In this document: positions 1-52,729 of the stretch, in pieces | Layout of the letters: each line of letters starts with the position of its first letter | How positions within the stretch are numbered: position 1 is the first letter of the stretch | Assembly: GCA_051531975.1 (NCBI GenBank) | Contig: JAOPTT010000001.1 | Location: 96,001-160,000, forward strand | Direction of reading: 5' to 3' | From: Spirochaetaceae bacterium | GTDB taxonomy: Bacteria; Spirochaetota; Spirochaetia; DSM-2461 | Length of the DNA stretch: 64,000 bases | Made by a program: the position numbers and the translations under genes | Notes under the pieces: model-generated | Databases searched by the model: none | What the model saw: the letters and a program-made list of their open reading frames with translations, nothing else | Told to the model about the DNA's origin: nothing

Positions 1-503
1 ACAGGTAACCATTCTAGGTTTAATGCAAATATAAGAATTGCGACAAGTCCAAAGAAAAACTGTGGTATAGATACACCTAACATACCTACAATAGTTAATG
101 TATTATCTGCTATGGAACCTTTATTTATAGCACTTATACAACCTAGAATACTTCCAAATATGGTTGAAAGAATCAGAGATACAAAAGCTAACTCTAACGT
201 TGCAGGTAGTCTATCAAAAACTATATTCTTAATTGGAACACCACTAGATATACTGTATCCAAAATCACCTTTAAGGATACCTTTTCCCCACTTAGCATAA
301 CGTATTAAAAATGGATCATTTAAGCCAAGAGATTCTCTTAATGCATCAAGTTTTTCCGGTGATAACTCTGCAGCTGCTTCTGGATCTATCAAAAATGATA
401 CTGCATCCCCAGGCATCAGGTCTAATCCTGTATAGATTAAGAAACTGATAATAATTAGCATAGGAATTAGAATTAAAATTCTTCTAATTGCATAGGATAA
501 CAT
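1..503 (-). CDS. ABC transporter permease, DppB/OppB family (runs off the window start)
   Basis: Not in the ORF track. Read by hand from ATG at 503 after RBS AGAGGAG: MLSYAIRRILILIPMLIIISFLIYTGLDLMPGDAV...LGLNDPFLIRYAKW...KGDFGYS...DRLPATLEL, the typical BPD_transp_1_N start. Lies downstream of a family-5 SBP. Confidence 0.9.
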   Translation of the reverse strand, partial: MLSYAIRRILILIPMLIIISFLIYTGLDLMPGDAVSFLIDPEAAAELSPEKLDALRESLGLNDPFLIRYAKWGKGILKGDFGYSISSGVPIKNIVFDRLPATLELAFVSLILSTIFGSILGCISAINKGSIADNTLTIVGMLGVSIPQFFFGLVAILIFALNLEWLP

Positions 504-533: not shown

Positions 534-557
534 CCCTGAAGTTTTTACACTTCAGGG
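534..557 (-). terminator. Stem-loop between SBP and permease genes (attenuator or mRNA stabiliser)
   Basis: Inverted repeat CCCTGAAG-N8-CTTCAGGG just after the SBP stop codon. Confidence 0.55.
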
Positions 558-578
558 AACTTAATTACTAAAAACTGA

Positions 579-2249
579 TTAGTTCTTTGGGAATTTATTT
601 ACGTAAAATAGTCTTGTATAAGGAATATCTACAGGAGTAACTCTCATGTTATCCATCTCTTCAAGTGCTATAACATCTGCAACACTTTTAGTAAAACCAT
701 AACTTAATTTTCCAGCCATAGCATTTTTAACTACGTTTCCATCATTTTCACCACTTGGGTAGATAACGATTTTATCGATACTAGTTGAACCGCCATAATA
801 ATTATCAGAAGGAACTAATACAATATAATCATTCATTTGAACTTCATCTATTTTATATGGACCATTTCCAATAGGAGACTGCCAGAAAGAACTCTGTTGG
901 AACTGTAAAGGATCAACTTTTCCTAAATGTTTTTTTGGCATTGGCGCGAATTGTGTAAATGTTAATAACATATTTGGATCAAGAGTATCAAAAGTAAAAG
1001 TAACAGTATTACCTTTAATTACTATTCCAGAAATGTCACTTGCACTTCCATCTAAAAATGCTGTTGCACCTTTTAATGATTTAAAGGTTGTAGAAAATAC
1101 AGAGTGAATTGTAGGAATCTGTAGAGCATACTCTACACTCCATTTAATATCTTCTGGAGTAAATTCTGCACCATCATGCCACATAATATTATCATTTAAA
1201 GTGAATACAACTTCTTTACCATCAGATGAAACTTTATAATCTTTTGCTAACTGTCCATCTTTTGCCATAATAGCTCCATTTGCTACTATTAAACGGTCAA
1301 AAAGAACTTTGTTATACATTTTGTGTCCAGGGTTAAACCATGGGTGCTCAAAGAATTCTACAGGAGCTGTGTTTGTATATAATACTTGCTCTCCATTTGA
1401 ATCAGCTTTTACAGTCCAGTCTGAAATACCCCAGTCATAGTTATACTGTGCATTTCCATACTCACCACCATTTCTATTTACATCTTTACTTTCGTAGATA
1501 AATAGTTGTTGGTAATAAAGAGGAATTAGTGGAAGATTTTTATTTACATATCTTTGTAACTCATAAAATGCAGCTTTTTGTTTATCAATATCAGCTGTTG
1601 CTTTAGTTGCTGCAATTAATGAATCTAACTCTGCAATTCCAGGTGTATGGGAGTTACCAGGTCCACCTGTAGGTAATTTACCATAATACTCATGCATTGC
1701 AAGAGCAGCACTTCCGGCATAAGCCATATCCCACTTAACATATGATGGGCCATTTACAGGATCAGATGGCGCTGTCCATAGTTGATCACCAATGTCACCT
1801 TCAAGTTTTCTAAAGTCCATTTTAACACCAACAGCCTGAAGATATGCTTGAGTAGCAGTCATTATATCAACTGTTAATTGATCTCCATAATAGAAAACAA
1901 CATCTAATGTATAATTTTTATCCCATCCAGCTTCTTTTAATAGTTCTTTAGCTTTTTCAGGATTGTAACTATAAGAGTTTAAACCATCTGTTTTCCATGG
2001 TCCGTTTGGAACCATACTGTTTGCAACAATTGCTTTACCCTCAAGAAGGGTATCTTTTATTGTTTCCATATCAATTGCGTATGAAATTGCCTGACGAATA
2101 CGATAATCTGAAAGTGGGTTACTATTTTGACCTTCCATAACCTCTTTAACTTCTGCTACTGCTGCAGGCTCATTTTGACCACTTGCAAAAATACCCATAC
2201 CTAAAGTTAACAATAGGCAGGAAACTACTAACAATTTGAATTTACTCAT
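579..2249 (-). CDS. Family-5 (OppA/DppA-like) ABC substrate-binding protein, circularly permuted
   Basis: Signal peptide. Motifs PLSDYRIRQAISYAID, YNPEKAKELLKEAG, LPLIPLY, LAKDYKVSSDGKEVVFTL..WHDG..FTPEDIKWS and PIGNGPYK are all present, but the two halves are in swapped order. Confidence 0.9.
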   Translation of the reverse strand: MSKFKLLVVSCLLLTLGMGIFASGQNEPAAVAEVKEVMEGQNSNPLSDYRIRQAISYAIDMETIKDTLLEGKAIVANSMVPNGPWKTDGLNSYSYNPEKAKELLKEAGWDKNYTLDVVFYYGDQLTVDIMTATQAYLQAVGVKMDFRKLEGDIGDQLWTAPSDPVNGPSYVKWDMAYAGSAALAMHEYYGKLPTGGPGNSHTPGIAELDSLIAATKATADIDKQKAAFYELQRYVNKNLPLIPLYYQQLFIYESKDVNRNGGEYGNAQYNYDWGISDWTVKADSNGEQVLYTNTAPVEFFEHPWFNPGHKMYNKVLFDRLIVANGAIMAKDGQLAKDYKVSSDGKEVVFTLNDNIMWHDGAEFTPEDIKWSVEYALQIPTIHSVFSTTFKSLKGATAFLDGSASDISGIVIKGNTVTFTFDTLDPNMLLTFTQFAPMPKKHLGKVDPLQFQQSSFWQSPIGNGPYKIDEVQMNDYIVLVPSDNYYGGSTSIDKIVIYPSGENDGNVVKNAMAGKLSYGFTKSVADVIALEEMDNMRVTPVDIPYTRLFYVNKFPKN

Positions 2250-2290
2250 AACATCTCCTTAAATTTAACTGAAATCAAAATGTATCCGAA

Positions 2291-2343
2291 TGTATACACA
2301 ATGTTTTCTTGTCTGGCTTTATTATTACATACATTTGTATACA
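2291..2343. promoter_or_regulatory. Two TGTATACA palindromes, candidate GntR-family operators
   Basis: TGTATACA at 2291-2298 and 2336-2343 in the divergent SBP/sulfatase intergenic region; the same octamer occurs at 10468 upstream of a GntR gene. Confidence 0.55.
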
Positions 2344-2356
2344 GTCAAGTCATTTC

Positions 2357-2385
2357 TTGCCAAATCTTATATTTAAATATACAAT
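2357..2385 (+). promoter_or_regulatory. Sigma70-type promoter for the sulfatase/URO-D operon
   Basis: TTGCCA-17 bp-TACAAT. Confidence 0.6.
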
Positions 2386-2430
2386 AACCTTAAATACTTA
2401 ATAAAACAGACTAAATATGAAGGAAGATAT

Positions 2431-4113
2431 ATGGAAAGCAGAGAAACATCTGGAATGAGTTCTGGAGCTAGTCATCAATTAAGGGTGGATCAACTTAAAA
2501 AAATTGAAAACCGTCCAAATATTCTATTAATAATGACTGACCAACAGAGAGCAGATACAATAAATGCCAGTGGTTCAGAGTTTATGATAACTCCAAATAT
2601 GGATCGTTTGGCTATAGATGGAAGGTTATATAAAAATGGATATTCACCAAACCCTATATGTATGCCTGCAAGACATAATATGTTAACAGGATTAACTGCC
2701 AGATATCATGGATACCCTGATAATGCATGGGGATTTGGTATGCCAGATGGTCTACCAACATTTCCAGAAATTTTATCAGATAATGGATATGAGACTAGAA
2801 CCATTGGGAAAAACCACTTTTATCCTCCAAGAAGGCACAATGGCTATCTTAATATGGAATTAATGCAGGAAGTTCCGGCCTTTAGGGAGCAAGATGAGTA
2901 CTTATTATATTTAAGAGATAATGGATTAGGAAATATACAAAACATTCATGGGGTTAGGAATTTACTCTATATGGTTCCACAGCAGTCTCAAATTCCTGAA
3001 GAGCATCATGGAACAACATGGGTAGCAAATAGAACAATAGATTTTATTGAATCAAACAATGGACGACATCCCTGGTTATTAAAAATGGGTTGGATTGCCC
3101 CACACCCTCCTTTTGATGTACCAAAAGAATTCGCAGACCTATATAAAGATGTAAAGTTTCCAGAACCACTAGTTTCTGAAACCCAGTTAAGTCCTTTAGC
3201 TGAAGAGAATAAACTTCTTGGAGATCTACCATCAAAACAATACATAAGACGGATGAAAGAGTTATATTATGGTGCTATATCCCATGTAGATCATCATCTT
3301 GGTAGAGTTCTAGATAGTTTGGAAAAAACAGATCAGCTTGATAATACCTTAATAATTTTTACTAGTGATCACGGGGAGATGTTAGGGGATTATTCTACTT
3401 ATCAGAAATGGCTACCATATAATGCCTGTTCAAAAATTCCTTTTATAATTCGTTATCCTAAAAAAATTAAACCAGGTGTTATAACTGAAGAGTTTGCAGA
3501 TCTAAACGACATTTTCCCAACAATACTTGAAGCTGCAGGCCTGAAATATCCAGGTAAGCATGAACTCCCCGGTGAGAGTTTAATAACAGATGATCCTAAA
3601 AAGGATAGAAACCAGCAGTATGTGGAGTATTCTGACGGTAATAGAAGATGGATTAGTCTAACAAACCATGATTATAAATATAACTACTACTTTGGTGGAG
3701 GTAGAGAAGAACTTTTTGATCTTAAAAATGATCCTGGTGAGTGTAGGAACCTAATGGAGTTCAAATTAAATACACGGCAACTACAGGCGAAAGATAAACT
3801 TAGAAAAGAGTTAATTAAAACTGAGGACAGATGGGGATTGATTGGCTCTATAGAGAATGGGGACTTAGTTGTAAGAGATAAATTTATACCTACTCCTTAT
3901 AGAAATAAGGCATTTCCTCTTTTCCCAGACAAACTAACAAATGCCAATGAGATTCAGTGTATGAATACACATATGGATGAAGTTATAGCTGTAACAGCCA
4001 ATGAAGATGTTGTTCATTTACAAGATTTAGACTTAAAAGTGTGGCAGTTAAACGGTAACTACAGTGATGAAGATATAGATACATTACTTAAAAAAGAGAA
4101 GGATAAAAAATGA
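2431..4113 (+). CDS. Cys-type (formylglycine-dependent) S1 sulfatase, cytoplasmic
   Basis: RPNILLIMTDQQR, CMPAR..MLTG (CxPxR), GKNH, PHPP, FTSDHGEMLG; no signal peptide. Confidence 0.93.
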   Translation: MESRETSGMSSGASHQLRVDQLKKIENRPNILLIMTDQQRADTINASGSEFMITPNMDRLAIDGRLYKNGYSPNPICMPARHNMLTGLTARYHGYPDNAWGFGMPDGLPTFPEILSDNGYETRTIGKNHFYPPRRHNGYLNMELMQEVPAFREQDEYLLYLRDNGLGNIQNIHGVRNLLYMVPQQSQIPEEHHGTTWVANRTIDFIESNNGRHPWLLKMGWIAPHPPFDVPKEFADLYKDVKFPEPLVSETQLSPLAEENKLLGDLPSKQYIRRMKELYYGAISHVDHHLGRVLDSLEKTDQLDNTLIIFTSDHGEMLGDYSTYQKWLPYNACSKIPFIIRYPKKIKPGVITEEFADLNDIFPTILEAAGLKYPGKHELPGESLITDDPKKDRNQQYVEYSDGNRRWISLTNHDYKYNYYFGGGREELFDLKNDPGECRNLMEFKLNTRQLQAKDKLRKELIKTEDRWGLIGSIENGDLVVRDKFIPTPYRNKAFPLFPDKLTNANEIQCMNTHMDEVIAVTANEDVVHLQDLDLKVWQLNGNYSDEDIDTLLKKEKDKK

Positions 4114-5177
4114 TAACATCTAAAACTAGAGTAATGGATACTCTTAACCACAAAGAAACTGATAGAACTCCCCTTATGTATCGGGATGTACCCGAAGTTA
4201 GACAGAGATTAAAAAAAGACCTAAATGTAACAACAGATGATGAGTTATATAAACTATTTGGAATAGATTTCCGATGGGTTGCTCCTGAATATATTGGTCC
4301 AGAATTAAACATATCAGAAACAGAGAAGATAGATCACTGGGGAATCGAGTGGCAATATACAAAATTTAGTGATAGTGCCGGATACTGGAATGAAAAATCA
4401 TTTCCTATGGAAAAAATAGATACAGTCATAGGTGCAGCTTCCTGGCCTATCCCGGATATTAAATCATGGAACTATTCAAACTTAAGCAGAGATTGTGATC
4501 TGTATAAAGACTATGCAATTATGACTGCGCCGGGTTTCAGCTCTCCAGGAATCCTACAATTCCCAATTCAATCTCTTCTTGGAACAGAGAAAAGCCTAAT
4601 GGATCTATATATAAATCCTGAATTTTACAAAGCTCTTATAAGCCGTGTATTAGAGTTTCAGATTCCCTTTATTGATAAGATGATGGAATCTGCAGACGGA
4701 AAGATAGATCTTTTTCGATTAGGTGATGACTTTGGAACACAGGAAGGCCTATTAATGGGATTAGACCAATGGAAAGAATTCTTTCAGCCAGCACTAAAAA
4801 AAATGGCTGATAAAGCTAAATGTTATGGGGCTAAATATTATCAACACTCCTGTGGAGCTATCCGGGAACTAATCCCATCATTTATCGAAACAGGTGTAGA
4901 TGTTATCGACCCGGTTCAGGTAAAAGCAAACGGAATGATTCCAAAGGAATTAAAAAAAGAATTTGGTAATAAAATATGTTTTTCAGGTGGTGTTGATGAG
5001 CAGGATCTCCTACCCCATGGAAGTGAAAAAGATGTTAGAGAAGCTGTTTGGAAGTTACTTGATGATATGAGTGGTAATGGAGGATTTATACTAGGGCCAA
5101 CCCACAATTTCCAGGATGATATTCCTACAAAAAATATTGTTGCCATGTATGAAGCAGTCCACAACTGGAAAGGATAA
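4110..5177 (+). CDS. Uroporphyrinogen decarboxylase-like (MtaA/CmuA methyltransferase superfamily) protein
   Basis: MTSKxRV..H.E.DR.P start, GDDFGTQ, QHSCGAI, GVD..DPVQ, FSGGVDEQ, GGFILGPTH; lacks the HemE RQAGR motif. Confidence 0.85.
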   Translation: MITSKTRVMDTLNHKETDRTPLMYRDVPEVRQRLKKDLNVTTDDELYKLFGIDFRWVAPEYIGPELNISETEKIDHWGIEWQYTKFSDSAGYWNEKSFPMEKIDTVIGAASWPIPDIKSWNYSNLSRDCDLYKDYAIMTAPGFSSPGILQFPIQSLLGTEKSLMDLYINPEFYKALISRVLEFQIPFIDKMMESADGKIDLFRLGDDFGTQEGLLMGLDQWKEFFQPALKKMADKAKCYGAKYYQHSCGAIRELIPSFIETGVDVIDPVQVKANGMIPKELKKEFGNKICFSGGVDEQDLLPHGSEKDVREAVWKLLDDMSGNGGFILGPTHNFQDDIPTKNIVAMYEAVHNWKG

Positions 5178-5211: not shown

Positions 5212-6342
5212 TTACTTTATAGTTTTAAGCATCTTATTAAATTGTTCTAATGACATAGTTGGAGGTATAGAGTGATCAGTGTGACAAATCCAGCCTCCAT
5301 CTTTAAACATCTCTTTTCGTGTTGTTAATTCCTGCTGGAGTTGTTCACAATCCCCATCCAGAATATGAGCATCAATATTTCCATAAAATGCCAGTCTATT
5401 TTGATATTTATCTTTTAACTGCCTAATATCCAATCCTGCAGAGGCCTGTAGAGGATTCATAACCTTAACTCCACAATCGATAAAATCATCAAACATTATC
5501 TCAGCATTTCCACATGAGTGCATCCAGAAATCAATATCGTTTTCTTTAAGAAAAGTACCAAGTTCTTTAACCATATCTTTATATACAGATGCCCACATGG
5601 TTGGAGACATTAAAGGTCCGTTACTTCCACCTAAGTCATCAACCATAAAATATCCATCAGGTTTCATTCCTTCAGAAATAGACTTTTTTAAAACATCAAT
5701 TGTAAGATCCACATGAACTCTACCCATATCCCTCACCCATTCTGGTTCAAGGGCAACATCCATTAATAAGTTAGAGAAATCTCGATGTCTCCATGTAGCC
5801 TCCCATGGACCATAATTTTTGAATAGAATATACCTGCCATTGTTCTCCATAATATCAAACTTAATTTTTGCTTCTTTCCATGATGGATAATCATCAAAAT
5901 GTTCAAAATAGTTCTGATCATCAATTCTAGAAGATTCAGATGGATCTTCATTTAGTTTCCATCTGTGTTTTGTAGATTCCCAAGTCTCTATATCTTTAGT
6001 TTTAACAGATACGTAGTGAATTGAACCTGACTTCTTCCATGGTTTTTCTGCTGTATATCCATATCTATCCTCATAAATATAATAATCGTCTTTATGGGAT
6101 AATATTTTTTGTTCATACCTTGGAGAACAATCAAGATACATAACAGCGATATCAAAATCAAAATATTCATCAACGGCCTGGCTTTTATTATCATTTAATG
6201 ATGGAGGATATATAGTTATATTCTGTGGGAATCCCTGTTCCTTCCAAACCTCTAAAGTATCTGTCCAGAAATCCTCATGTACAGGTATTCTATCTGGTTT
6301 CTCCCAATTGATTGCCGCTTTTACTCTCTCTTTTGAAGTCAT
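5212..6342 (-). CDS. Second uroporphyrinogen decarboxylase-like protein
   Basis: MTSKERVKAAI..EKPDRIP, DDLG...GPLMSP, MHSCGN, NPLQ, FYGNID, HTDHSIP. Confidence 0.85.
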   Translation of the reverse strand: MTSKERVKAAINWEKPDRIPVHEDFWTDTLEVWKEQGFPQNITIYPPSLNDNKSQAVDEYFDFDIAVMYLDCSPRYEQKILSHKDDYYIYEDRYGYTAEKPWKKSGSIHYVSVKTKDIETWESTKHRWKLNEDPSESSRIDDQNYFEHFDDYPSWKEAKIKFDIMENNGRYILFKNYGPWEATWRHRDFSNLLMDVALEPEWVRDMGRVHVDLTIDVLKKSISEGMKPDGYFMVDDLGGSNGPLMSPTMWASVYKDMVKELGTFLKENDIDFWMHSCGNAEIMFDDFIDCGVKVMNPLQASAGLDIRQLKDKYQNRLAFYGNIDAHILDGDCEQLQQELTTRKEMFKDGGWICHTDHSIPPTMSLEQFNKMLKTIK

Positions 6343-8088: not shown

Positions 8089-10236
8089 TTACTTTATCAA
8101 GAATGTATAAGCACCATTCCAATTAGCAGGAGGTGGATTGTTTTTGAAATTGATGCATCTATCCAGGAATATTTGAGAAGCATAATCGAATGGAAGGATT
8201 TCAAGACATTCTCTAAATAGTTTAATTGAATCGTCCCAATTTTTAGAAAAATATTGGTCTAATGCGTTATTATATGTTTTTAGAATTTGCTGTTTACTTG
8301 TCTTTATATTTGTTTCATTTGAATTAAAAACTTCATATATGGTTTCAGGGTTGTCCTTACCTTTAACATTTACATAGTCTAATTTTCTCCAAAGTATTGA
8401 GCTATCTTCTTTAATAAGTGCCCAGGTGGCTGAGCTTATTATAATTTGAACATTATATTGCTTTGTTAAACTTTCCAAACGTGCTGCCAAATTTACAACA
8501 TCTCCTAAAACTGTAGAATCCATTCGTTCGTTAGATCCAACGGTCCCAATAATCACACGACCACTATGAATACCAATACCTGTTTTTATAGGAACAGCAC
8601 CATATTCAAGTCTTTTTTGATTATATTCGTGTAGACAATCTTGCATCTCAATAGCCGCATGAACAGCACAATTTGCCTCTTTTTCTGAACCATCCTCAGA
8701 GAGGTCGAAAAGAGCCATAATTGCATCACCAATAAATTTATCAATAAATCCTCTATTCTTATGAATTGGTCTGCTTAACCTCTCAAAATAGGCGTTTAGA
8801 AAATCTAATACATCTTTAGGTTTCATGTTTTCAGTAAAGTTTGTAAATGAACGAATATCTGAAAACAACACACTAATAAAAGCACTTTCTGCATTTCCAA
8901 GTTTTATACTCTCGATTCCTTTTTTTCCAATCCGTGCCATAAAGTTTGGAGGAACAAACTTCTGAAATGTTTCAGCATATATTTCAATTTTTGTATAAGC
9001 TTTAGAAAACCGAAGAGAAAGAAAAAATGATTGAAATAAAATAAATAGAAACGTACCTAAAGGAACTAAGCGAAATGGACTAATAGGTATTTGATAAATA
9101 AATAATATATCGTGAATAAAAGTAATAACAGGTAGTATTAATCCTAGTATTATAACAATAGCACCTTTCTCTTTTTTCATCGATGTCCCAATTAAAAGAA
9201 ACAGTATGTAAAAACATAATAAGGTAAAATATATTTGATAGAAAAAAGCAAACTTTGAATAAAAGTTAATAGTTGAAACCAGGGTTAATAATGCAAATAT
9301 TCCGCCAATAACTTTTACAGTTGGAAGGATACGGTTCCGGAGGAAAGGACGATAAAAAATTGAATCTACGAATGCTATCCATAGCGGTGGAATTAAATAT
9401 AGTGTTAGGTATTCAACCTTTCTAGCAATCTCCCAATTTAGCGTAGGATAAATAGATACTAAAAAATCTTCACCTTTAATCAATATTCTAAGGCAAATAA
9501 GCAGACAAATAAATCCAAAATATAGAGGGCTCTTGTCTTTTTTACGTAGAATATAAAGTCCAAAATGATAAAAAGCCATAATAATAATGCTACCAAAAAG
9601 TGTCATCTCGAAGGCGAGTTTTTGTCTCATGTTCTGTATTATTTGCCTTTCTTCTCCAAATTCGATATATGACCATGGGCCACCAAGCCTATGGTTATAG
9701 TTAGAAACATTCAGAGTTAGTAGTTTAATGTTTTGTGATAAATCAACAGATACGATATCAGAAGAGTGTTGTGGAACCATTAGTTTTTTTTCTTTTCCAA
9801 CAACACCACTTTGAGAAATTTTTTCCCGATCGATCCATAGTGTATAGGCAGAACTTTGCTCATCTAACTTTAGGGCATACCTTTTACTGGATTCTGGGAA
9901 AATAACCTTCAGTCTAAAGGTAGCATACCCATAACTTCCTAGTTTTTCTCCATTTATTTTATAGTTATTCCATTGTCCTGGTAAATTATAATAACCTTGA
10001 AGCATGGGTTTTGAAGTAGATTGTATCTCAAAGTCCATTGGCACTAATAATTGATCCCAATAGAACTTCCATTCTCCATTTAGTTTTACAACTCCATCAT
10101 TTATAAAATCCCAATCTGAAAGGTCGAGAACACCTTTTATGGCTATTGGCTGAGTTTTTTCTGAATATTGGTTTTGGCAGGAAAATAGAAACAGAAATAA
10201 TAAAAAAGCTATTAAATAAAATCGATGCTTCATCAC
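8089..10236 (-). CDS. Membrane adenylate cyclase (class III) with 7TM-DISM sensory region
   Basis: GVLDLSDWDF..VKLNGEWKFYW extracellular domain, about 7 TM helices, and catalytic motifs FSDIRSFT, IDKFIGDAIMA, GIGIHSG, DSTVLGDVVNLAARLE. Confidence 0.9.
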   Translation of the reverse strand: MMKHRFYLIAFLLFLFLFSCQNQYSEKTQPIAIKGVLDLSDWDFINDGVVKLNGEWKFYWDQLLVPMDFEIQSTSKPMLQGYYNLPGQWNNYKINGEKLGSYGYATFRLKVIFPESSKRYALKLDEQSSAYTLWIDREKISQSGVVGKEKKLMVPQHSSDIVSVDLSQNIKLLTLNVSNYNHRLGGPWSYIEFGEERQIIQNMRQKLAFEMTLFGSIIIMAFYHFGLYILRKKDKSPLYFGFICLLICLRILIKGEDFLVSIYPTLNWEIARKVEYLTLYLIPPLWIAFVDSIFYRPFLRNRILPTVKVIGGIFALLTLVSTINFYSKFAFFYQIYFTLLCFYILFLLIGTSMKKEKGAIVIILGLILPVITFIHDILFIYQIPISPFRLVPLGTFLFILFQSFFLSLRFSKAYTKIEIYAETFQKFVPPNFMARIGKKGIESIKLGNAESAFISVLFSDIRSFTNFTENMKPKDVLDFLNAYFERLSRPIHKNRGFIDKFIGDAIMALFDLSEDGSEKEANCAVHAAIEMQDCLHEYNQKRLEYGAVPIKTGIGIHSGRVIIGTVGSNERMDSTVLGDVVNLAARLESLTKQYNVQIIISSATWALIKEDSSILWRKLDYVNVKGKDNPETIYEVFNSNETNIKTSKQQILKTYNNALDQYFSKNWDDSIKLFRECLEILPFDYASQIFLDRCINFKNNPPPANWNGAYTFLIK

Positions 10237-10467: not shown

Positions 10468-10516
10468 TGTATACAGAATTATATTTTAATTGCTTTTTTG
10501 TCTCTTTAGGTATACA
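10468..10516 (+). promoter_or_regulatory. Candidate GntR autoregulatory operators
   Basis: TGTATACA at 10468-10475 and GGTATACA at 10509-10516 upstream of the GntR gene. Confidence 0.5.
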
Positions 10517-10547: not shown

Positions 10548-11222
10548 ATGAACGGAGAAAAAAATAGAACATCATATGAATATCTCAAAGATTTGATTCT
10601 CGGGTTCCACATAAAACATGGGCAGAGGATAACTGAAGTATTTCTTTCAGAGAAAATGAACTTATCTAGAATTCCTGTAAGAGAAGCTATTCAGCAAATG
10701 GTATACGAAGGATTTATTGAACGTTCAGAAAAAAATGGATATCAGATTAAAGAGTATAACGAGCAGGATATAATAGACTTATATAACTATAGAGAAGCTA
10801 TGGATGGAATGTTAGTAAAATTGTTTACTGGGAGGGTTGATGAATCCCAACTCTACTTCCTAGAGATTAATGTGGAATCTATGTCTGAGATATTACAGGA
10901 TTTTGACAGAAAAGAGTTTTCAAAGATAGATTTAGAGTTTCATAGAATAATTGCAAGAGGTGCCCGGAACCAGTATATGGAGCATCAACATGAAATTATC
11001 TTAGAAAAAGTTTTATACGTTGCCGAGCTTATGTATAAGGTTGCAGAAGAGAAAAAGATCAACTTATTAGACATAAATAGTTATAAGAATACATACTTAC
11101 AACATAAAGCTATTCTGGAATCTATTAAAAAACGTGATCCTGAAAATGCCGAAAACTTTGCTCGAGAGTCTGTTAGAGAGGGGCTTAAAAAAAGCCTATT
11201 AATACTATCTAAACATCGTTAA
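10548..11222 (+). CDS. GntR/FadR-family regulator, paralog of 7367-8044
   Basis: Shares the identical block QIKEYNEQDIIDLYNYREAMDGML and the motif FHRIIARGARNxYMEHQHEIILEKVLYVA. Confidence 0.92.
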   Translation: MNGEKNRTSYEYLKDLILGFHIKHGQRITEVFLSEKMNLSRIPVREAIQQMVYEGFIERSEKNGYQIKEYNEQDIIDLYNYREAMDGMLVKLFTGRVDESQLYFLEINVESMSEILQDFDRKEFSKIDLEFHRIIARGARNQYMEHQHEIILEKVLYVAELMYKVAEEKKINLLDINSYKNTYLQHKAILESIKKRDPENAENFARESVREGLKKSLLILSKHR

Positions 11223-11244: not shown

Positions 11245-12414
11245 ATGGATACCAATACTATAAAAAAACTTAAAGAATTTTATAATAACGAACTACTTAA
11301 TAATGTAGTTCCATTTTGGCAAAATAATTCTGTAGACTGGGAATATGGCGGTTTTATGGATTTTCTAGATAGAGAGGGTAAAACACTATCAACTGATAAA
11401 GGTGGTTGGGTTCAAGGACGAGCAGTTTGGATATTTTCAAACCTATATAGGGATATAGAAAAGAGAGATGAATGGCTAAAAGTTGCAGAAAATGGTGTGA
11501 AGTTCATTAGAGAACATCTAATCAGAAAATCTGACGGAAGGGTTTACTTCGAAGTTACTAGAGAGGGTAAACCCCTGTTAATGAGACGTTACCTGTTTTC
11601 TGAACTATTTGCAGCTATGGGTTTAGCAGCATACTCTGAAATATCCGGGGACAGACAGGCTCTTGATGAAGCAAGAACTCTATACTCAACTATAAATAAT
11701 CTAATGGATAAAATGCCTTCAAAAATTGATGTAAATACAAGAAAGTTCAGAGGACATTCCATGACTATGATGTTAATAAACCTCTGTCAGGTTATGCGAG
11801 ATGCGGATATGGAAAGAGCATCAATTTATACAAAACAAATAGATATCCAGATAGATGAGCTTTTTAAATACTTGGTTAAACCTGAGCTAAAATGCCTTCT
11901 AGAAACCGTTGATGAAAATGGAGACCAAACTGAGGGTCCTGAAGGTCGATGTGTAAATCCGGGGCACGCTATTGAAACAGCATGGTTTATATTAGAGGAA
12001 GCAAAGTTACGTAACGATGATGAATTAATTAAGAAGACACTGCTAATTATAGACTGGTCTTTAGAGTTAGGTTGGGACAAAGAGTATGGAGGGATTTTTT
12101 CTTTTGTTGATATAGAAGGAAAACAACCAGCACAAGTTGAGTGGGATATGAAATACTGGTGGCCTCACTGCGAAACCATATATGCACTATTACTAGCCTA
12201 TGATCTGACTAAGGATAAAAAATACGAAGATTGGTTTAATAAAGTACATGATTATACCTGGGATAAATTTCCGGATAGAGAGCATGGTGAGTGGTTTGGA
12301 TATTTAAGACGGGATGGTTCTGTTCAAGTAGATCTGAAAGGAAATCACTTTAAAGGGCCTTTTCATATACCAAGGTTTTTAACAAAAGTTTCAACTTTAT
12401 TAGACAGTATGTAA
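11245..12414 (+). CDS. AGE-family epimerase (N-acylglucosamine 2-epimerase-like)
   Basis: WVQGR, NPGHAIE, WDKEYGG, WWPHCE, GEWFGYL, KGPFHIPR. Confidence 0.9.
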   Translation: MDTNTIKKLKEFYNNELLNNVVPFWQNNSVDWEYGGFMDFLDREGKTLSTDKGGWVQGRAVWIFSNLYRDIEKRDEWLKVAENGVKFIREHLIRKSDGRVYFEVTREGKPLLMRRYLFSELFAAMGLAAYSEISGDRQALDEARTLYSTINNLMDKMPSKIDVNTRKFRGHSMTMMLINLCQVMRDADMERASIYTKQIDIQIDELFKYLVKPELKCLLETVDENGDQTEGPEGRCVNPGHAIETAWFILEEAKLRNDDELIKKTLLIIDWSLELGWDKEYGGIFSFVDIEGKQPAQVEWDMKYWWPHCETIYALLLAYDLTKDKKYEDWFNKVHDYTWDKFPDREHGEWFGYLRRDGSVQVDLKGNHFKGPFHIPRFLTKVSTLLDSM

Positions 12415-19299: not shown

Positions 19300-20478
19300 T
19301 TACCAGTACATTTTCCAGTCCCGATCGAGTCTCATTAATGCTTCAAAATAATAATAATCACCCCATATATTACACTCATCAATACCATTTTTCTGGGGCA
19401 TAGCATATACAGCATGTAGTAATATACCATTAGATTTTGGTTCCGTCACCGTTGTATAGTTTTCTGATAAGGACTTAATCATTTTAATAGCCGCATTTTT
19501 ATAGATGTCTTTTTTAGGATCAGCATCTTTTATATTTTTATCATACTCTAATAATCCACAAGCTGTTATAGCGGCAGAAGATGAGTCCCTCTCTACATCG
19601 CCTTCTGTAAAGATAAGGTCCCAGTAACAAACTTCATCGACTGGAAGTCTGTTTAGATAATAATTTGTAACATTGTCTGTTAATCCTAAAATCTTTTCAT
19701 CTTTAATATAACCATAACTCAGTGGAAATCCATATATTGCCCATGCCTGTCCTCTAGCCCAACAGGAATCGTCAGAAAATCCCTGACAGGTTCTACCAAA
19801 TTTTGGTTCTCCTGTTTCTACATCCATATAGAAAGTATGGTAAGTAGAAGAGTCTTCTCTAATGATGTATTTAGCGGCCTGTCTAACGTGGGATGTTGCA
19901 GCATCTCTGTATTTTGGGTCTCCTGTCATCTCTGTTGCCCAAAATAGAAGTGGAAGATTCATACAACAATCAATTATCATTCGCCCCTGTTGTTCTGGAT
20001 CGTTAATATCACCCCAGGCCTGGATAATTCCAGCTATTGGTAAATATCTATCCATTAATCTGTCAGCTGCCATTAAAGCAGTCTCTTTAGCAAACTCATC
20101 ACCTGTAATTTTATATGCCGCAACACAGGATAATGAATATAAAAAACCAAGGTCATGATGATTTGTCAACTTCTCAGACTTCAGTCTCTCTCTAAAACTC
20201 CGAACCTGTATCATAGCAATATTTTTATATTTTTCATCATTTGTATACTCATAGGCAAGCCATAACATACCGGTCCAAAATGATGAAGTCCAACATGTAT
20301 TATCTATAGCTGGATATACAAGATCTATACTTGCTGCCCTAGGGAATTTATCTGTAAAAACATCTAAGTTTTCATCCATCTTTTTTAATATAAAATTAAT
20401 TGAGTCTTTTATATCCTGTTTCGAAAAATCCGGTTTATTAATATACCGATCCCTATTCTTTATTTCTTCTTTTATCAT
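19300..20478 (-). CDS. GH88 unsaturated glucuronyl hydrolase
   Basis: WTSSFWTG, HHDLGFLY, IIDCCMNLPLL, WARGQAW, DSSSAAI, WGDYYYFEAL. Confidence 0.93.
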   Translation of the reverse strand: MIKEEIKNRDRYINKPDFSKQDIKDSINFILKKMDENLDVFTDKFPRAASIDLVYPAIDNTCWTSSFWTGMLWLAYEYTNDEKYKNIAMIQVRSFRERLKSEKLTNHHDLGFLYSLSCVAAYKITGDEFAKETALMAADRLMDRYLPIAGIIQAWGDINDPEQQGRMIIDCCMNLPLLFWATEMTGDPKYRDAATSHVRQAAKYIIREDSSTYHTFYMDVETGEPKFGRTCQGFSDDSCWARGQAWAIYGFPLSYGYIKDEKILGLTDNVTNYYLNRLPVDEVCYWDLIFTEGDVERDSSSAAITACGLLEYDKNIKDADPKKDIYKNAAIKMIKSLSENYTTVTEPKSNGILLHAVYAMPQKNGIDECNIWGDYYYFEALMRLDRDWKMYW

Positions 20479-20561
20479 ATGATTTCCTTTATCAACAATT
20501 GATATTAAATTTGTTTACGACAATTATAATATTGCACCCTAGGTTGGTATGTGAATTCAGT

Positions 20562-22775
20562 TTAGTAATTTTCCCCCAGAGCATATGCTCCTGGGGATAA
20601 CCCTACATACTTTTTAAATACTCTGATAAATGTATTTGAACTATTAAATCCAACTCTACCTGCCAATTCTTGAATCTGTATATTACTGTTTTTTTCAAGT
20701 AACTGTTTTGCTTTTGTTATTCTGTGTTTATTAAGCACATCCTTAAAATTTGAGCCTGTTACCCGTTTAAAAAGTATACTGCTGTATTTCTCTGTTATAT
20801 CTAAATGTTGTGAAATATCATATAGACTGATATCCCTGCTATAATTTTTATGGATATATGCCATAATCTCTTGAGCCATAAGATTGTTACTATTATTCTT
20901 GTCAGATGAAACAGTACCAATTATCTGTTCAAATAGTTCATGAACTTTACTTCTAATCTGTTTATTATCCTCTAATGATAAAATTTCAAGAACATACCGC
21001 ATCTCATTATCAAATAGTTCACCTTCAATTTTTTTCTCTTGCTGAATTCTATTAATAGTGGACATAAGTGAGAAAAGGAAATTACGTTTTCTATCATAAC
21101 TTAACCTTCTAACAAGTAGGTTTTCGTCAAGTAGAAGTTCCACGACCTTTTTAGTTTCAGATCTATTGCCATTTAAAATCCCGCTTATAAGTCTGTTTTC
21201 CACATTTAATGGAAAAAAGTAGTGATAATCTCTAAATGACTTTAAGTCATCTATGGTCAAGATCTGTTTTATTCCTACAGAGTTTTTATACTCCATAATC
21301 CTGTTTGCCTCATTAAATGATATTTTAACCTTTTTCATATCATCTACTTTTCTACCTACAGAGGCAATAACTACAACATCATACTCCTCTTCTATATTGA
21401 TTATCAGACTTTTAACTGTGTCTTCAATATCTACTGAATCAACTTTAAGAATTAATACAAAACTATTATAATCAATATTTACAAATTGTATTTTTTCACT
21501 ATTTAAAGTTGCGGCTCTAATTATGTTTTTTGCTAAAAAAACTGTATCGTTTTCAAGAGTATTATCCCACTCTTCAATATTAAACAGAATAACCTGAAAA
21601 TCACCCTTTTCTATTCTGAAATCTTTATATGAATCAAACTTAGCGGTATTTATTCCATAAAGTAGATCTTTGTGGAATTTCTCCAGTAATAAATTTGAAT
21701 TTTTTAGAATAAGACTTTTTAATTGTAAATTATCATTTTGAATCTCTTCAGCTTTTAAATTAATAAATTCAAACTCATTAAAACCTTTATCACCTATACT
21801 TTCACCAGAGAAAGTATCAATAACAGTTGATACAGGCTTATACAAAAAGGATGTAATAAATTTTGCAATACCTAAACAGAGAATACATAGAAGGACATAC
21901 GGTATTAAAATTAGTAGTAGAGTTTTTAATATAAAAGATTTATCTTCCTGGTATAGGTAGATATAATTCATATTCTGATTAGTTGAAGGTAAAACATATC
22001 CATCCAACTCTCCATAGCTAAAATATCTATTATCATTTTTTACAGGCAGTGAAGAGTCTATAATATTGTCAAAATCTGTAGTCTGCAGATATGATAGAGA
22101 GTTTGAGATATATTTACTTATAAGATTACTGTTATATGTTATTAACCACCCATCATTTAGGTCCAGTATAGATGAATAATAGTTCTCCTCATCTATTGTA
22201 AGATAAAAAAAGACTTCTCTATCTCCATATTTCTGAAGAGTAATATAGTTGATCTTTTTTTTGCCCTTCACAATCCCATTTTTAATTAGATATTTATTAT
22301 ATCCTCTTAAATTTTTTAATTCTGTATGTAACTCATTACGTTTTTTATCATTTAAACCTAAAACATTTTTATAATATTCATCTTTTGACAAACTACTGGA
22401 TTGAGTAATCACAGAGTAGTTTTCATCCTGAATTGTGACTCCTATCTGAAAATCAAGGGCTCCTAGACTAAGTTGCTGCTTTGCAATGTCATCCTGAACT
22501 TTTAACAGGTAGTAGTAATACTCATCCTCACTGGAGTATGCCCATGTCTCAATAAGTGAGGAAGTCCTAAAGTTAATAAGGGATGTGAACGCTATATTTA
22601 TCTGGAGATCAAGCTGCTGTTTCTTAGATGAAATCAGTTGTTCCCTATTATGTTTTTTTTCTTTCTGGGATATTTTTAAACCATAAAAAACAACTCCACC
22701 TGTAATAATAGTTGTTAAAAAAAGGAGGAGTGTTAAGTAGATTACAAATATCTTTTTTTCATAAGTTCCGTGCAT
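20562..22775 (-). CDS. Membrane-anchored AraC regulator with extracytoplasmic sensor domain
   Basis: Two TM segments flank a large loop; C-terminal AraC HTH (VGFNSSNTFIRVFKKYVGLSPG). Confidence 0.9.
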   Translation of the reverse strand: MHGTYEKKIFVIYLTLLLFLTTIITGGVVFYGLKISQKEKKHNREQLISSKKQQLDLQINIAFTSLINFRTSSLIETWAYSSEDEYYYYLLKVQDDIAKQQLSLGALDFQIGVTIQDENYSVITQSSSLSKDEYYKNVLGLNDKKRNELHTELKNLRGYNKYLIKNGIVKGKKKINYITLQKYGDREVFFYLTIDEENYYSSILDLNDGWLITYNSNLISKYISNSLSYLQTTDFDNIIDSSLPVKNDNRYFSYGELDGYVLPSTNQNMNYIYLYQEDKSFILKTLLLILIPYVLLCILCLGIAKFITSFLYKPVSTVIDTFSGESIGDKGFNEFEFINLKAEEIQNDNLQLKSLILKNSNLLLEKFHKDLLYGINTAKFDSYKDFRIEKGDFQVILFNIEEWDNTLENDTVFLAKNIIRAATLNSEKIQFVNIDYNSFVLILKVDSVDIEDTVKSLIINIEEEYDVVVIASVGRKVDDMKKVKISFNEANRIMEYKNSVGIKQILTIDDLKSFRDYHYFFPLNVENRLISGILNGNRSETKKVVELLLDENLLVRRLSYDRKRNFLFSLMSTINRIQQEKKIEGELFDNEMRYVLEILSLEDNKQIRSKVHELFEQIIGTVSSDKNNSNNLMAQEIMAYIHKNYSRDISLYDISQHLDITEKYSSILFKRVTGSNFKDVLNKHRITKAKQLLEKNSNIQIQELAGRVGFNSSNTFIRVFKKYVGLSPGAYALGENY

Positions 22776-22829
22776 TATTTAATCCTTAAAACATGATAAC
22801 AAAGGTTGTAGTATTCAACAAGTTTTTTG

Positions 22830-24197
22830 TTAATTCTCTCCACCCATCAGAGTCCTCTTTTTCCTATAAACCCCTCTCATATACTCCAGTTGTAGTTTAT
22901 ACTCTTTATTATATATAAGATTATTTTGTTCAAGAGGATCCTCTTCCAAGTGAAATAACTCCTCGATATCATTTGGGGTATATATATATTTATATCCTTT
23001 GTAAACAACTGCTCTTCGAATCTGTCCATACCATGAAATACCTGAGAATTGCAAAAAAATCGGACTGTGATCTATAGGTTCAGTCCCAGTAATTGTCCCA
23101 AGGAGAGATCTTCCTTCAAGGGGTTGCCCAGTAGTAGAAGTTGATATTAGATCCAATATTGTTGGAACTACATCCAGATGGGATACTGGAATATCTGATT
23201 TTCCACTAGGATATCCTGGAATCTTCAAAATAAATGGTACTCTGACAGCCTGTTCATATAACTCCATCTTTTGATACATTTTATGTTGACCAAGATGATC
23301 CCCATGATCGGAAGTAAACAAGATAGCTGTACTGTCCCATAAACCTCTATCTTTTAAACTCTGAATAACCCTTCCTATTGCTTTATCCGCCATGTGTACA
23401 AGTCCAAGATGGGCAGACCATGCCTCTCGCCAATCTTCTTCCGATCTATTTTCCGCCAGAATAGCAGGGACTGCTTCCCGTCTTTTTGGCGGTTCATTGG
23501 AAGCTGGTATTCCCACATTAGCTGGGAGAGTTATATCAGCCGGTGGAAACATTGAAAAATAAGGTTCTGGAACAATCAAAGGTGGATGAGGTGCCCACAA
23601 ATTAAGAAACATAGCAAAAGGATTTTCTTTCTCAGAATCAATATAATCAATTGCCCTGTCGACAAACCAGTTATCCATAAAACAGTTTTCATTATATGGG
23701 AAAAGGGATTTTCTGGAATTTGAATACTTACGCTCAACTATCTCACCCTCTTTCTCCAGTATTAAACATTTGGTTTTATTCCTTTCATCCGGTGTCATAT
23801 CAATACCATTAACCTGTGCCCACTGCTCATATTCAGAATTCCCAATCCAATAGTCAAATTTAACATCCTCTACAAGAGGGGGTAAAACACGAATATGATG
23901 AACACCAATGTGGGCTACATCATAATTTGCTTCTTTAAGATATTTGTGTATGGTTTTCTGCTCAGATGCGGTATCCCCTGCCCAGTCATTATATACAACA
24001 CCACTATCCAACGGGGCAACTCCCGTAGCTAACGCTGTTCTTGCTGGTACACAGAGAGGGGAAGCGTTGTAGCAGGTTGAAAACTGGTAAGATTCCTCCA
24101 TTAATCTGTTTAAATTAGGAGTTACTTCTATTCCACACTGAACCATACCTAAACTATCAGCTCTCTGATGGTCAGTCATAATATGTATTATATTCAT
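22830..24197 (-). CDS. Cys-type S1 sulfatase, cytoplasmic
   Basis: MTDHQR, CVPARTALATG, APHPP, FTSDHGDHLG. Confidence 0.92.
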   Translation of the reverse strand: MNIIHIMTDHQRADSLGMVQCGIEVTPNLNRLMEESYQFSTCYNASPLCVPARTALATGVAPLDSGVVYNDWAGDTASEQKTIHKYLKEANYDVAHIGVHHIRVLPPLVEDVKFDYWIGNSEYEQWAQVNGIDMTPDERNKTKCLILEKEGEIVERKYSNSRKSLFPYNENCFMDNWFVDRAIDYIDSEKENPFAMFLNLWAPHPPLIVPEPYFSMFPPADITLPANVGIPASNEPPKRREAVPAILAENRSEEDWREAWSAHLGLVHMADKAIGRVIQSLKDRGLWDSTAILFTSDHGDHLGQHKMYQKMELYEQAVRVPFILKIPGYPSGKSDIPVSHLDVVPTILDLISTSTTGQPLEGRSLLGTITGTEPIDHSPIFLQFSGISWYGQIRRAVVYKGYKYIYTPNDIEELFHLEEDPLEQNNLIYNKEYKLQLEYMRGVYRKKRTLMGGEN

Positions 24198-25618: not shown

Positions 25619-25636
25619 ATTATATCTCCATTTTAT

Positions 25637-27214: not shown

Positions 27215-27317
27215 TATTCCTCCAGACCATCAATACAAATACCATATCTTTTATTACTTTATATTTTAAACAGTTTTCTTTACAAAATCTATAAAGAACT
27301 AATTATTACACCTATAT

Positions 27318-29962: not shown

Positions 29963-30007
29963 TTTAATTCTCCTTGATTTATATAATGATTAAAATCATT
30001 TATCTAT

Positions 30008-31414: not shown

Positions 31415-31442
31415 AATAATTACAGCCTTTTTATATCCCTAA

Positions 31443-31470
31443 CTAATAAGGAGCCAATGCTCCTTATTAG
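31443..31470 (-). terminator. Perfect 12-bp stem-loop after the SBP gene (terminator or stabiliser)
   Basis: CTAATAAGGAGC-CAAT-GCTCCTTATTAG. Confidence 0.7.
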
Positions 31471-31481
31471 ATAATTAATTT

Positions 31482-33044: not shown

Positions 33045-33095
33045 TAATTTCTCCTTTTCTTCCGGACTCCCGGAAATTACTATTTATATAATTGT

Positions 33096-33983: not shown

Positions 33984-33992
33984 TTCTCCCCC

Positions 33993-52186: not shown

Positions 52187-52716
52187 CTATAAAGTTATCC
52201 CGTCAATCATTTTCATAAATCTCTTACCATACTCTATATAGTTACTGTATTGTAAATCAGCTTCTGTTTGCGCAGCTTTATCATGAAATACTACAGACAT
52301 ATGCGGCTCCATGGAAAATCCTCCATCATAACCTGATTTTAGCAGATCAGTAACAATCTCTTTTACATGACCCTCACCTTCACCAGGGAAAGTCCATTTT
52401 GCATCGGGAAATACACCATCGGTTTCATTAAGATAAATACCATCTTTAATGTGTACATAATGAATAAACTCCCGCACCTCTTTATAAAACTCAAAGGCAT
52501 TTTGTTTTTTATACGGTTTAGTTCCACTTCTGTCATATGTTATAACAGGGTTTCCGGTATCGAATACAAGTTTGAAGTTAAGAGAATTTATCTTTTCTAT
52601 TAACCTTAAAGTATGCTCGGAGGACATTCCACCATAGTTCATATAGTTTTCATGCTGATATAGTATTCCCGCATCTTCACAAATATTTACAAGCTGTTTA
52701 ACTTTAGAAAATACAT
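52187..52716 (-). pseudogene. Relic of the 60288-61187 sugar-phosphate isomerase/epimerase (~370-bp deletion just after the start codon)
   Basis: C-terminal half nearly identical in protein to 60288-61187; RBS and ATG are fused out of frame at AATACAT (52710-16). Confidence 0.88.
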
Positions 52717-52729
52717 ATTAATTCCTCGT

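Follow-up and report, generated by a model that had tools for sequence, protein, structure and literature searches.

In a 64,000-nucleotide stretch of DNA from a Spirochaetaceae bacterium (GenBank assembly GCA_051531975.1, contig JAOPTT010000001.1, positions 96,001 to 160,000; the whole of it is called here the window), the gene at 579..2249 on the minus strand encodes a family-5 solute-binding protein (SBP) whose two halves stand in the reverse of their usual order. The protein is a clean natural circular permutant of the cluster-C fold, cut where the first hinge strand enters Domain III, and its relatives recur in a gene context that points to an importer of sialic-acid-type compounds; we put the probability of this account as a whole, with the ligand read from gene context, at about 0.7. 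The gene would then specify the periplasmic binding protein of a Dpp/Opp-type ATP-binding cassette (ABC) importer. Its parts are arranged as follows.

579..2249, minus strand: gene for the circularly permuted family-5 SBP; open reading frame (ORF) of 556 amino acids (aa), PF00496 210 bits in two stretches
2181..2249, minus strand: predicted signal peptide MSKFKLLVVSCLLLTLGMGIFAS, approximately residues 1-23; hydrophobic leader with the cleavage site placed by eye; the model has a helix at 2-18
2124..2180, minus strand: tether, residues 24-42, variable and disordered, running directly into Domain III; length and sequence differ among homologues
1410..2123, minus strand: Segment A, residues 43-280, the canonical second half (Domain III, returning hinge strand, C-terminal lobe-1 piece)
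1386..1409, minus strand: new linker KADSNGEQ (residues 281-288) between ..DWTV of the old C-terminus and VLYTN.. of the old mature N-terminus
582..1385, minus strand: Segment B, residues 289-556, corresponding to lobe 1, the first half in canonical order; its last elements are hinge strand 1 (YTRLFYV) and the tail NKFPKN

The ORF opens with ATG, preceded at a distance of 7 nucleotides (nt) by an AAGGAG ribosome-binding site (RBS; 2255-2260), and runs uninterrupted to its stop. Its translation carries NPLSDYRIRQAISYAID (residues 44-60), YNPEKAKELLKEAG (95-108), LPLIPLY (239-245) and KADSNGEQ (281-288), after which come LFDRL, WHDG and PIGNGPYK before the C-terminal end YTRLFYVNKFPKN, so that every motif quoted in the preliminary description of this DNA, together with the linker, is found in the order given there. 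The Pfam profile of the family (SBP_bac_5, PF00496; cluster C) scores 210 bits (gathering cut-off 32.4). When each part is scanned by itself, residues 43-281 fall on profile positions 211-328 (of 368) and residues 284-556 on positions 5-203. Two partial hits in reversed order are what the preliminary description had predicted; the single colinear hit that would have spoken against it was looked for and did not occur. By comparison, the profile runs colinearly, in a single stretch, through the canonical proteins P0122 (5-347) and P0125 (3-321).

P0122, a protein of 567 aa in canonical order retrieved by exhaustive search of 1.84 billion representatives, allows the rearrangement to be located to the residue. 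In BLASTP, query residues 284-554 align with P0122 52-324 (140/275 identical, 51%; E 3e-91) and query residues 46-280 with P0122 333-566 (123/235 identical, 52%; E 2e-81), and these swapped segments, which are far beyond chance, together cover P0122 once; P0125 likewise matches in two swapped segments, at 37% and 43% identity. P0122 is continuous across the site of the new termini (...YTRLFFLNKFP-NADGTPAA-LADYRVRQAI...), where the window SBP ends ...YTRLFYVNKFPKN and begins ...NSNPLSDYRIRQAI. Conversely, the C-terminus of P0122 (...DWVIG) and its mature N-terminus (...AEGEKVLYTN) are fused in the window SBP as ...DWTV-KADSNGEQ-VLYTN..., the linker thus standing at the old termini. The new termini fall in the loop that leads from the strand YTRLF.VN into the helix L.D.R.RQA, and with this hinge loop continuous in P0122 the earlier proposal of a clean natural circular permutation at an inter-lobe connection holds.

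The reversal relative to P0122, P0125, DppA and 8upi is also apparent in other comparisons. NCBIfam partial matches are inverted too (GsiB, residues 44-257 to model positions 278-493; Opp4A, residues 314-496 to 64-244), and in a sequence search of the Protein Data Bank (PDB) both stretches are reversed in all three matches aligned residue by residue, among them DppA (8z1y_F; query 278-496 to 20-244 and 43-117 to 301-376) and 8upi (query 314-496 to 41-220 and 44-254 to 281-494). Among the best 60 of 82 PDB matches there is no full-length colinear one, and the coordinates of their best stretches fit the swapped order.

Could the swapped order be an artefact, either a misassembly or two adjacent partial SBP genes? 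The permuted order is kept in all 120 best matches in a collection of 5.8 billion proteins (54-91% identical over 92-100% of the length) and, similarly, in 80 of 80 genomic loci. These are the loci kept of 136 relatives in a scan that took a single genome for each GTDB species; every one of them aligns with the query without any swap, and Breznakiella homolactica and Devosia rhodophyticola contribute complete chromosomes. By record title 41 loci belong to Pseudomonadota, 22 to Spirochaetota, 7 to Bacillota and 1 to Thermotogota, while 4 are titled Deltaproteobacteria/SAR324 (mapped by the tool to Myxococcota) and 5 are unassigned, giving at least five phyla overall. In an alignment of 126 sequences, residues conserved at 90% or more reach up to both breaks (L46, D48 and R50-R52 on one side; Y544, T545, R546, N551 and F553 on the other). 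Since order and termini are the same in the 120 matches, the 80 loci and the 126-sequence alignment, and so across independent assemblies and finished chromosomes, a misassembly or a tandem gene pair is ruled out: the scenario that the preliminary description had itself raised was checked and did not occur. A single ORF with signal peptide, RBS and stop, halves that resemble the canonical P0122 to the same degree (51% and 52%), and a confident single-chain structural model leave this explanation with a probability close to nil. A tblastn search of plasmids matched 1956 records, all below 60% identity and none a family member.

The structural model was computed with AlphaFold2 (AF2) from the 126 sequences, and it has a mean predicted local distance difference test score (pLDDT) of 92.0 and a predicted template-modelling score (pTM) of 0.86; scores under 50 are confined to residues 18-37, in the tether, and the block 281-290, which contains the linker, stands at 97. 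It supersedes an earlier model from 16 sequences (pLDDT 72.5). Foldseek against the PDB returned 172 matches at E <= 1e-3, with a similar result for the 16-sequence model; the best 50 of the 172 are all family-5 SBPs, aligned over 212-299 columns with TMq <= 0.37. Matches of half length suggest that each half of the model resembles the canonical fold, none of the listed solved chains being colinear with the whole. The ESM Atlas yielded generic family-5 clusters only and no structure of the window SBP.

Cluster-C binding proteins are textbook two-hinge Venus-flytraps, and in DppA domain I is composed of residues 1-33, 183-262 and 479-507. In the window SBP the last strand of the AF2 secondary structure is YTRLFYV (544-550), which the alignment equates with the first hinge strand; the helix YRIRQAISYA (49-58) opens Domain III, and LIPLYYQQLFIYES (241-254) corresponds to the returning hinge strand. 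The portions of the EppA report available to us (PMC7312458) describe the lobes of that cluster-C protein as linked by a two-strand hinge, the strands standing just before and just after Domain III, and two hinge beta-strands are likewise described, in the part of the paper that we could consult, for HdSatA (PMC11364026, IUCrJ 2024). By homology both ancestral termini would lie in lobe 1, and the new linker inside lobe 1. With both old termini there, the linker would add no link between the lobes, which would leave one covalent hinge strand in place of two. Homology and secondary structure point to this single covalent crossing, and a change in hinge dynamics, as raised in the preliminary description, may follow from it.

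The chain would accordingly be read as signal peptide, tether, Domain III, hinge strand 2, old C-terminal lobe-1 piece and eight-residue linker, followed by the old N-terminus, the rest of lobe 1, hinge strand 1 and the stop; the free C-terminal strand presumably still pairs non-covalently with hinge strand 2. Inspection of the window SBP leader by eye found no lipobox at the proper place. Firmicute homologues have a lipoprotein-type Cys in place of this type of leader, and the lipid-anchored N-terminus of these members tethers Domain III, not lobe 1.

The evidence on function comes from the company that the gene keeps. For the 80 loci, ORFs of at least 110 aa were called and clustered, and the clusters were named with Pfam. 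The permuted SBP has evidently spread across phyla in a conserved operon of the order SBP-permB-permC-ATPase-ATPase (SBP in 76 loci of the 80, ATPase in 71, permB in 65 and permC in 62). The DppB-like permease reported downstream in the preliminary description is present in the window at 3..503, and such a homologue directly follows the SBP gene in 77/80 loci; the domains BPD_transp_1_N, OppC_N and oligo_HPY identify the permeases and ATPases as Dpp/Opp-type partners. A gene of the DHDPS/NanA family is found in 53/80 loci by clustering, to which L001 and L025, recognised later, may be added (53-55). Other neighbours are PhyH (26 of the 80 loci), SDR (17), ROK (16), NanE (14), HpcH (14), AGE-type epimerase (11) and a NanE-ROK fusion (5); NanA-family genes occur together with NanE, ROK or AGE in 28/80. 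The regulators beside the operon are often of RpiR or GntR-FCD type, the latter in at least 43 of 80 loci. N-acetylneuraminate lyase is the best NCBIfam model in 11 of the 12 DHDPS-family neighbours scanned, with L019 and L028 above the model's cut-off. The details of single loci are in keeping with this. A BNR/sialidase-like gene follows NanA immediately in L007, a NagB-type gene and an Amidohydro_1 (NagA-type) gene lie in L004, GDSL esterases are found in L003 and L009 and a gene like YhcH/NanQ (N-acetylneuraminate anomerase) in L003, and in L001, the closest locus at 73% identity, the DHDPS gene stands directly after the ATPases.

Because the operon recurs with NanA, NanE, NanK and AGE genes, the ligand is to be sought among sialic acids and not among peptides, and the synteny makes it quite probable that the permuted family imports sialic or nonulosonic acid. 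After import the compound would most likely be cleaved by the NanA-type lyase. Combinations of NanA with NanE/NanK or AGE, such as mark nan clusters, are found across the loci; the window itself shows AGE and GntR-FCD only, among the following neighbours of the SBP gene.

3..503, minus strand: DppB-type permease gene, 5' part (first 167 codons); PF19300, PF00528; runs off the window start
534..557, minus strand: stem-loop CCCTGAAG-loop-CTTCAGGG in the SBP-permease gap; -16.1 kcal/mol, z -3.86, 0/200 shuffles as stable
2250..2430, no strand assigned: divergent intergenic region with RBS, promoter-like TTGACT-16-TG-AATAAT (2348..2321, minus strand) and two TGTATACA palindromes (2291-2298, 2336-2343)
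2431..4113, plus strand: Cys-type (CMPAR) sulfatase without hydrophobic leader, predicted cytoplasmic; PF00884 E 1.4e-50
4110..5177, plus strand: URO-D / MtaA-CmuA-like protein; PF01208, NCBIfam MtaA/CmuA-type below cut-off; 4-nt overlap with the sulfatase gene
5212..6342, minus strand: second URO-D-like protein; PF01208; a 72% identical orthologue adjoins the SBP gene in L003
7358..8044, plus strand: GntR/FCD regulator (Pfam); in L001-L003 its orthologues (67-72%) are the immediate upstream neighbours of the SBP gene and are transcribed divergently from it
10548-11222, plus strand: second GntR/FCD regulator (Pfam)
11245-12414, plus strand: AGE-type N-acylglucosamine 2-epimerase; NCBIfam AGE 379.7 bits, below the cut-off of 600

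Several observations weigh against a sialic-acid ligand. No NanA gene is visible in the 64-kb window, which is so because the operon runs past the window start. Nine of the NanA-like neighbours fall below the NCBIfam cut-off (175-271 vs 281), and that of L006 looks DapA-like. L003 is without a DHDPS gene within 10 kb, and the sequence of L002 ends too early to show one. In all, some 25 of 80 loci have no NanA-family gene, among them the Deltaproteobacteria/SAR324-titled and related loci L067-L069, L071, L072 and L076, whose SBPs are 56-59% identical. These carry two PhyH dioxygenases, an SDR and an amidohydrolase-aminotransferase fusion, with an HpcH aldolase, AKR or RraA in some, and represent a different downstream pathway.

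One alternative then is that the nan-type neighbours are coincidental and that the protein is a peptide-, nickel- or opine-type binding protein. Its generic database name ('peptide/nickel transport system substrate-binding protein') says as much, the strongest NCBIfam hits, all of them partial, are Opp4A, NikA, CntA and DppA, and permeases and ATPases are of Opp/Dpp type, with OppC_N and oligo_HPY domains. No NCBIfam model, however, comes near its cut-off (the best scores 169.6 vs 650), and there is none for the permuted SBP; the NanA-type genes of the 53-55 loci are spread over Bacillota, Spirochaetota, Pseudomonadota and Thermotogota, often together with NanE, NanK or AGE and with RpiR or GntR-FCD regulators, and peptidase families appear in the neighbourhood Pfam scans of L007 and L073 only (M81, M55). 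We accord this alternative very little credence, and the generic 'peptide/nickel' annotation is probably wrong in hundreds of genomes.

Rather more can be said for the view that in the source organism the SBP takes up some other sugar, sulfated or acidic, such as might come from the breakdown of sulfated glycans, specificity having drifted between lineages. Five more sulfatases are encoded in the window, as are two GH88 enzymes, GH125, GH36 and GH78 enzymes and four family-1 SBPs, and no NanA is visible in it; the closest loci carry URO-D-like genes, which are not known from nan clusters, and the SAR324-type loci indicate that the family can occupy other pathways. On the other side, the window SBP is 54-73% identical to SBPs of loci with classical nan sets, L001 (73%) has its DHDPS gene after the ATPases and L003 (68%) its YhcH/NanQ-like, GDSL and AGE genes, GntR-FCD and AGE genes lie within the window at 8 kb from the SBP gene, and the other sulfatase and GH88 genes of the window have family-1 ABC systems of their own. 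On balance we consider a different sugar unlikely.

Ten loci of Alphaproteobacteria (including Planktomarina, Devosia and Maritalea: L015-L017, L022, L023, L026, L031, L052, L058 and L059) carry a conserved set of genes upstream of the operon, consisting of an RraA-like aldolase, two GFO/IDH/MocA oxidoreductases, two to three SDRs, an HpcH aldolase, a D-serine-dehydratase-like protein and RidA, and, downstream, class III and class IV aminotransferases and a second DHDPS-like gene. Such a gene content suggests the catabolism of a more heavily substituted nonulosonic acid.

The preliminary description had argued that the transporter takes up a sulfated sugar and not peptides. The second part of this argument is supported by the NanA-type context, and the first part finds some backing in the sulfatases of a quarter of the loci, with the ligand now sharpened from a sulfated sugar to a sialic acid that is possibly sulfated. 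The divergent sulfatase operon of that description is present as the sulfatase/URO-D-like gene pair transcribed away from the SBP gene. Orthologues of this sulfatase lie beside the SBP gene in L002 (75%) and within the operon of Clostridium sediminicola (L008; 50%). Sulfatase genes occur in 20/80 loci, 17 of which also have NanA; in 17 Pseudomonadota loci the sulfatases that flank the operon are of unrelated subfamilies (about 28% identity), often three to a locus, with PhyH, NanA, NanE and ROK alongside. Of 42 sulfatase ORFs, 39 have the C-x-[PA]-x-R motif and 41 are without a hydrophobic N-terminal window, the exception, in L055, scoring high only inside the fold; the leader check, a heuristic and not SignalP, found clear leaders in four of six SBP controls, the other two having mis-called starts. 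As the sulfatases are predicted to be cytoplasmic, the substrate would be imported while still sulfated. In the window and in a quarter of the loci, then, the imported form may be sulfated and may be desulfated by a cytoplasmic sulfatase, and the gene content makes sulfated sialic acid a reasonable candidate ligand in the sulfatase-bearing loci. A point against this for the window itself is its general wealth of sulfatases, with five more within 22830-31414, such that the adjacency of sulfatase and SBP genes here could be incidental.

One to three predicted cytoplasmic sulfatases are found in loci of Rhodobacteraceae/Hyphomicrobiales type (L028, L033, L035-L037, L041, L044-L046, L048-L050, L053 and L080). 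Most of these have NanA, and many also PhyH, an AraC regulator, a fatty-acid-hydroxylase-like gene and NanE/ROK; they are candidates for the use of sulfated sialic acid. URO-D / MtaA-CmuA-like genes are found near the transporter in L002, L003, L006, L009, L021 and L074 (five by clustering, and L009), in spirochaetes and one Firmicute. Speculatively, these proteins could strip an O-methyl group from a modified sialic acid.

How did the permuted form arise, and how often? For phylogenetic analysis each protein was cut at the junction, and the two blocks were aligned separately and then concatenated. P0133 and P0144, in which an unrelated N- or C-terminal part is joined to a canonical sister piece, are probably assembly or gene-call chimeras and were left out. 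In a first tree of 26 permuted and 45 canonical rows over 501 columns, the permuted rows and the canonical P0122, P0125 and P0126 form a clade with a Shimodaira-Hasegawa-like approximate likelihood ratio test (SH-aLRT) support of 100 and a stem of 0.57, and a clade of permuted proteins only is not rejected by the approximately unbiased (AU) test (p 0.505). All of 119 further relatives of P0122 are in canonical order, and the named canonical sisters come from anaerobic Clostridia (Anaerotruncus, Hungatella, Pseudoflavonifractor, Catonella) and an Anaerorhabdus. In a denser, outgroup-rooted tree, where the ingroup again has an SH-aLRT support of 100, 13 canonical Clostridial rows form a clade of their own (support 99), and all 26 permuted rows together with the canonical P0126 form another (support 96).

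The simplest reading of these trees is a canonical ancestor and one origin of the permutation. The permuted form would have come from a canonical ancestor common with the Clostridial sisters, by tandem duplication, in-frame fusion and loss of the outer halves. That a search for longer homologues gave one unrelated protein of 1660 aa and no tandem-fusion intermediate is weak evidence against this route. A single origin is itself not secure, given the result of the AU test on the denser data (p-AU 0.073) and an insertion in P0126 that is common to a permuted subclade. The alternative is that the gene order has changed repeatedly, by independent permutations at the same hinge loop or by re-permutation in the P0126 lineage. 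P0126 has the canonical order and its own lipoprotein signal, yet it falls within the permuted clade, grouping with P0040, P0056, P0066, P0124, P0127 and P0142 at support 92; forcing a permuted-only clade on the denser data costs 15.2 log-likelihood units; and the insertion YW.EGTGNI (for example YWDEGTGNI) is present in 11/126 permuted proteins and 3/53 fragments but in P0126 alone among 212 canonical ones. Since P0126 possibly lies inside the permuted clade, the order may have flipped more than once: P0126 may be a flip back to the canonical order, or there may have been several independent flips. Duplicating a permuted gene in tandem and then trimming it would restore the canonical order by the same mechanism. 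Against repeated change stand the long branch of P0126 (1.17), the AU test, which rejects one origin in neither data set, and the dependence of the whole signal on a single 50%-identity representative. We judge repeated change to have somewhat less than an even chance.

The immediate surroundings of the SBP gene may also bear on its expression. A scan found no terminator after the SBP gene, and the stem-loop at 534-557, which is followed by no T-run, could raise SBP mRNA relative to that of the permease genes. Promoter-like sites in the scan are not above chance (14 vs 13.3 expected). TGTATACA occurs in the 64 kb at 2291-2298, 2336-2343, 10468-10475 and 28142-28149, a frequency not enriched window-wide (4 vs 1.85 expected; 11/100 shuffles reach 4). 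Two of these sites are in the SBP-sulfatase gap and one precedes the GntR-FCD/AGE genes, not far from GGTATACA (about 10510). This placement, and only this, is suggestive of a candidate GntR-type operator that would link the SBP and AGE loci.

Elsewhere in the window, a 7TMR-DISM membrane sensor joined to an adenylate/guanylate cyclase domain (8089-10236, minus strand) is encoded between the two GntR-FCD regulators, with a homologue in 0/80 loci. The large region 19300-34925 (minus strand) is devoted to sulfated-glycan utilisation: four of the five further sulfatases are encoded here, alongside a 737-aa AraC-type regulator, a pair of GH88 unsaturated glucuronyl hydrolases and two family-1 SBPs together with permeases; GH125, GH36 and GH78 enzymes and more family-1 SBPs follow further along. 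At 52187-53119 (minus strand) two short ORFs, one with AP_endonuc_2 positions 134-244 and one with the C-terminal domain of GFO/IDH/MocA only, may be gene remnants, and a HepT-like RNase and an MNT-type nucleotidyltransferase at 54273-55080 (minus strand) form a toxin-antitoxin-like pair.

The most far-reaching form of our proposal combines a new family of sialic-acid transporters, a single covalent hinge, a permutation possibly undone within the clade, and O-sulfated sialic acids that are imported and then desulfated in the cytoplasm; that all of this holds together we regard as rather doubtful. If true, it would be the fourth ABC type and the ninth type of sialic-acid transporter overall, widespread in marine and anaerobic bacteria, and would provide the first microbial route for sulfated sialic acids. 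The permuted operon would add a family mostly of free-living marine or anaerobic, not host-associated, bacteria, and the sulfatase-bearing loci would be concrete candidates for a sulfatase acting on sulfated sialic acid. A natural cut in a hinge strand, with canonical sisters about 50% identical, would also be a ready experiment on the way in which hinge connectivity governs opening and closing, affinity and transporter docking, and a naturally permuted SBP a template for the design of biosensors.

How, finally, does the permuted system compare with those already described? In the parts of the 2021 survey by Severi et al. that were accessible (PMC8461474), eight families of sialic-acid transporter are distinguished, and the sole type with a family-5 SBP is ST3, SatABCD, which is found in Actinobacteria and Pasteurellaceae and in which SatC is a fused permease-ATPase; its SBP from Haemophilus ducreyi, HdSatA, is deposited as PDB 5Z99, 5ZA4 and 5YYB. 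The accessible text of a 2023 review in JBC (PMC10017367) counts three ABC families and notes that a microbial sulfatase with activity on sulfated sialic acid has yet to be reported. The permuted transporter goes unmentioned in the portions consulted of surveys of 2009, 2021, 2023 and 2026. A search of the literature, with subscription papers and supplements outside its scope, found nothing on the permuted transporter or on sulfated sialic acid in connection with a sulfatase, and, in the texts as available, engineered cases only of permuted SBPs or periplasmic binding proteins (PBPs).

HdSatA, like the window SBP, is a family-5 (PF00496) three-domain SBP of an ABC importer encoded in nan clusters, and on the available parts of the two sources (PMC8461474, PMC11364026) it shows that the family-5 fold can bind N-acetylneuraminic acid (Neu5Ac). 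Unlike the window SBP it has the canonical order and a two-strand hinge, and it is a remote relative (E 1.5e-9, compared with 8.9e-23 for DppA; Foldseek rank 48 for 5z99, over 236 columns). Where ST3 has the fused SatC, the permuted system has permB, permC and two ATPases as separate genes. Membership in ST3/SatA was considered and rejected, given an SBP that is not orthologous to HdSatA (E 1.5e-9) and a permease and ATPases that are unfused; judged by its genes, the permuted system would work like ST3 and represent an independent recruitment of the family-5 fold.

E. coli DppA, OppA, NikA and other cluster-C SBPs share with the window SBP the Pfam family, the secondary-structure elements and the type of permease and ATPase partner, but they are colinear, each aligning to one half of the window SBP at a time, and they bind peptides or metal chelates. 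Circular permutants of periplasmic binding proteins that were engineered for biosensors show, in the accounts that were accessible, that PBP folds tolerate new termini; those are man-made, whereas the window SBP is natural. Its canonical sisters (P0122 and the 119 further relatives) belong to the same clade (SH-aLRT 100), at a median identity of 52% and 48% to the two halves of the window SBP, and like it they conserve the motifs at the junction and at the termini; unlike it, they have the normal order and a continuous hinge loop, NKFP-x5-8-L.D.RVRQA.

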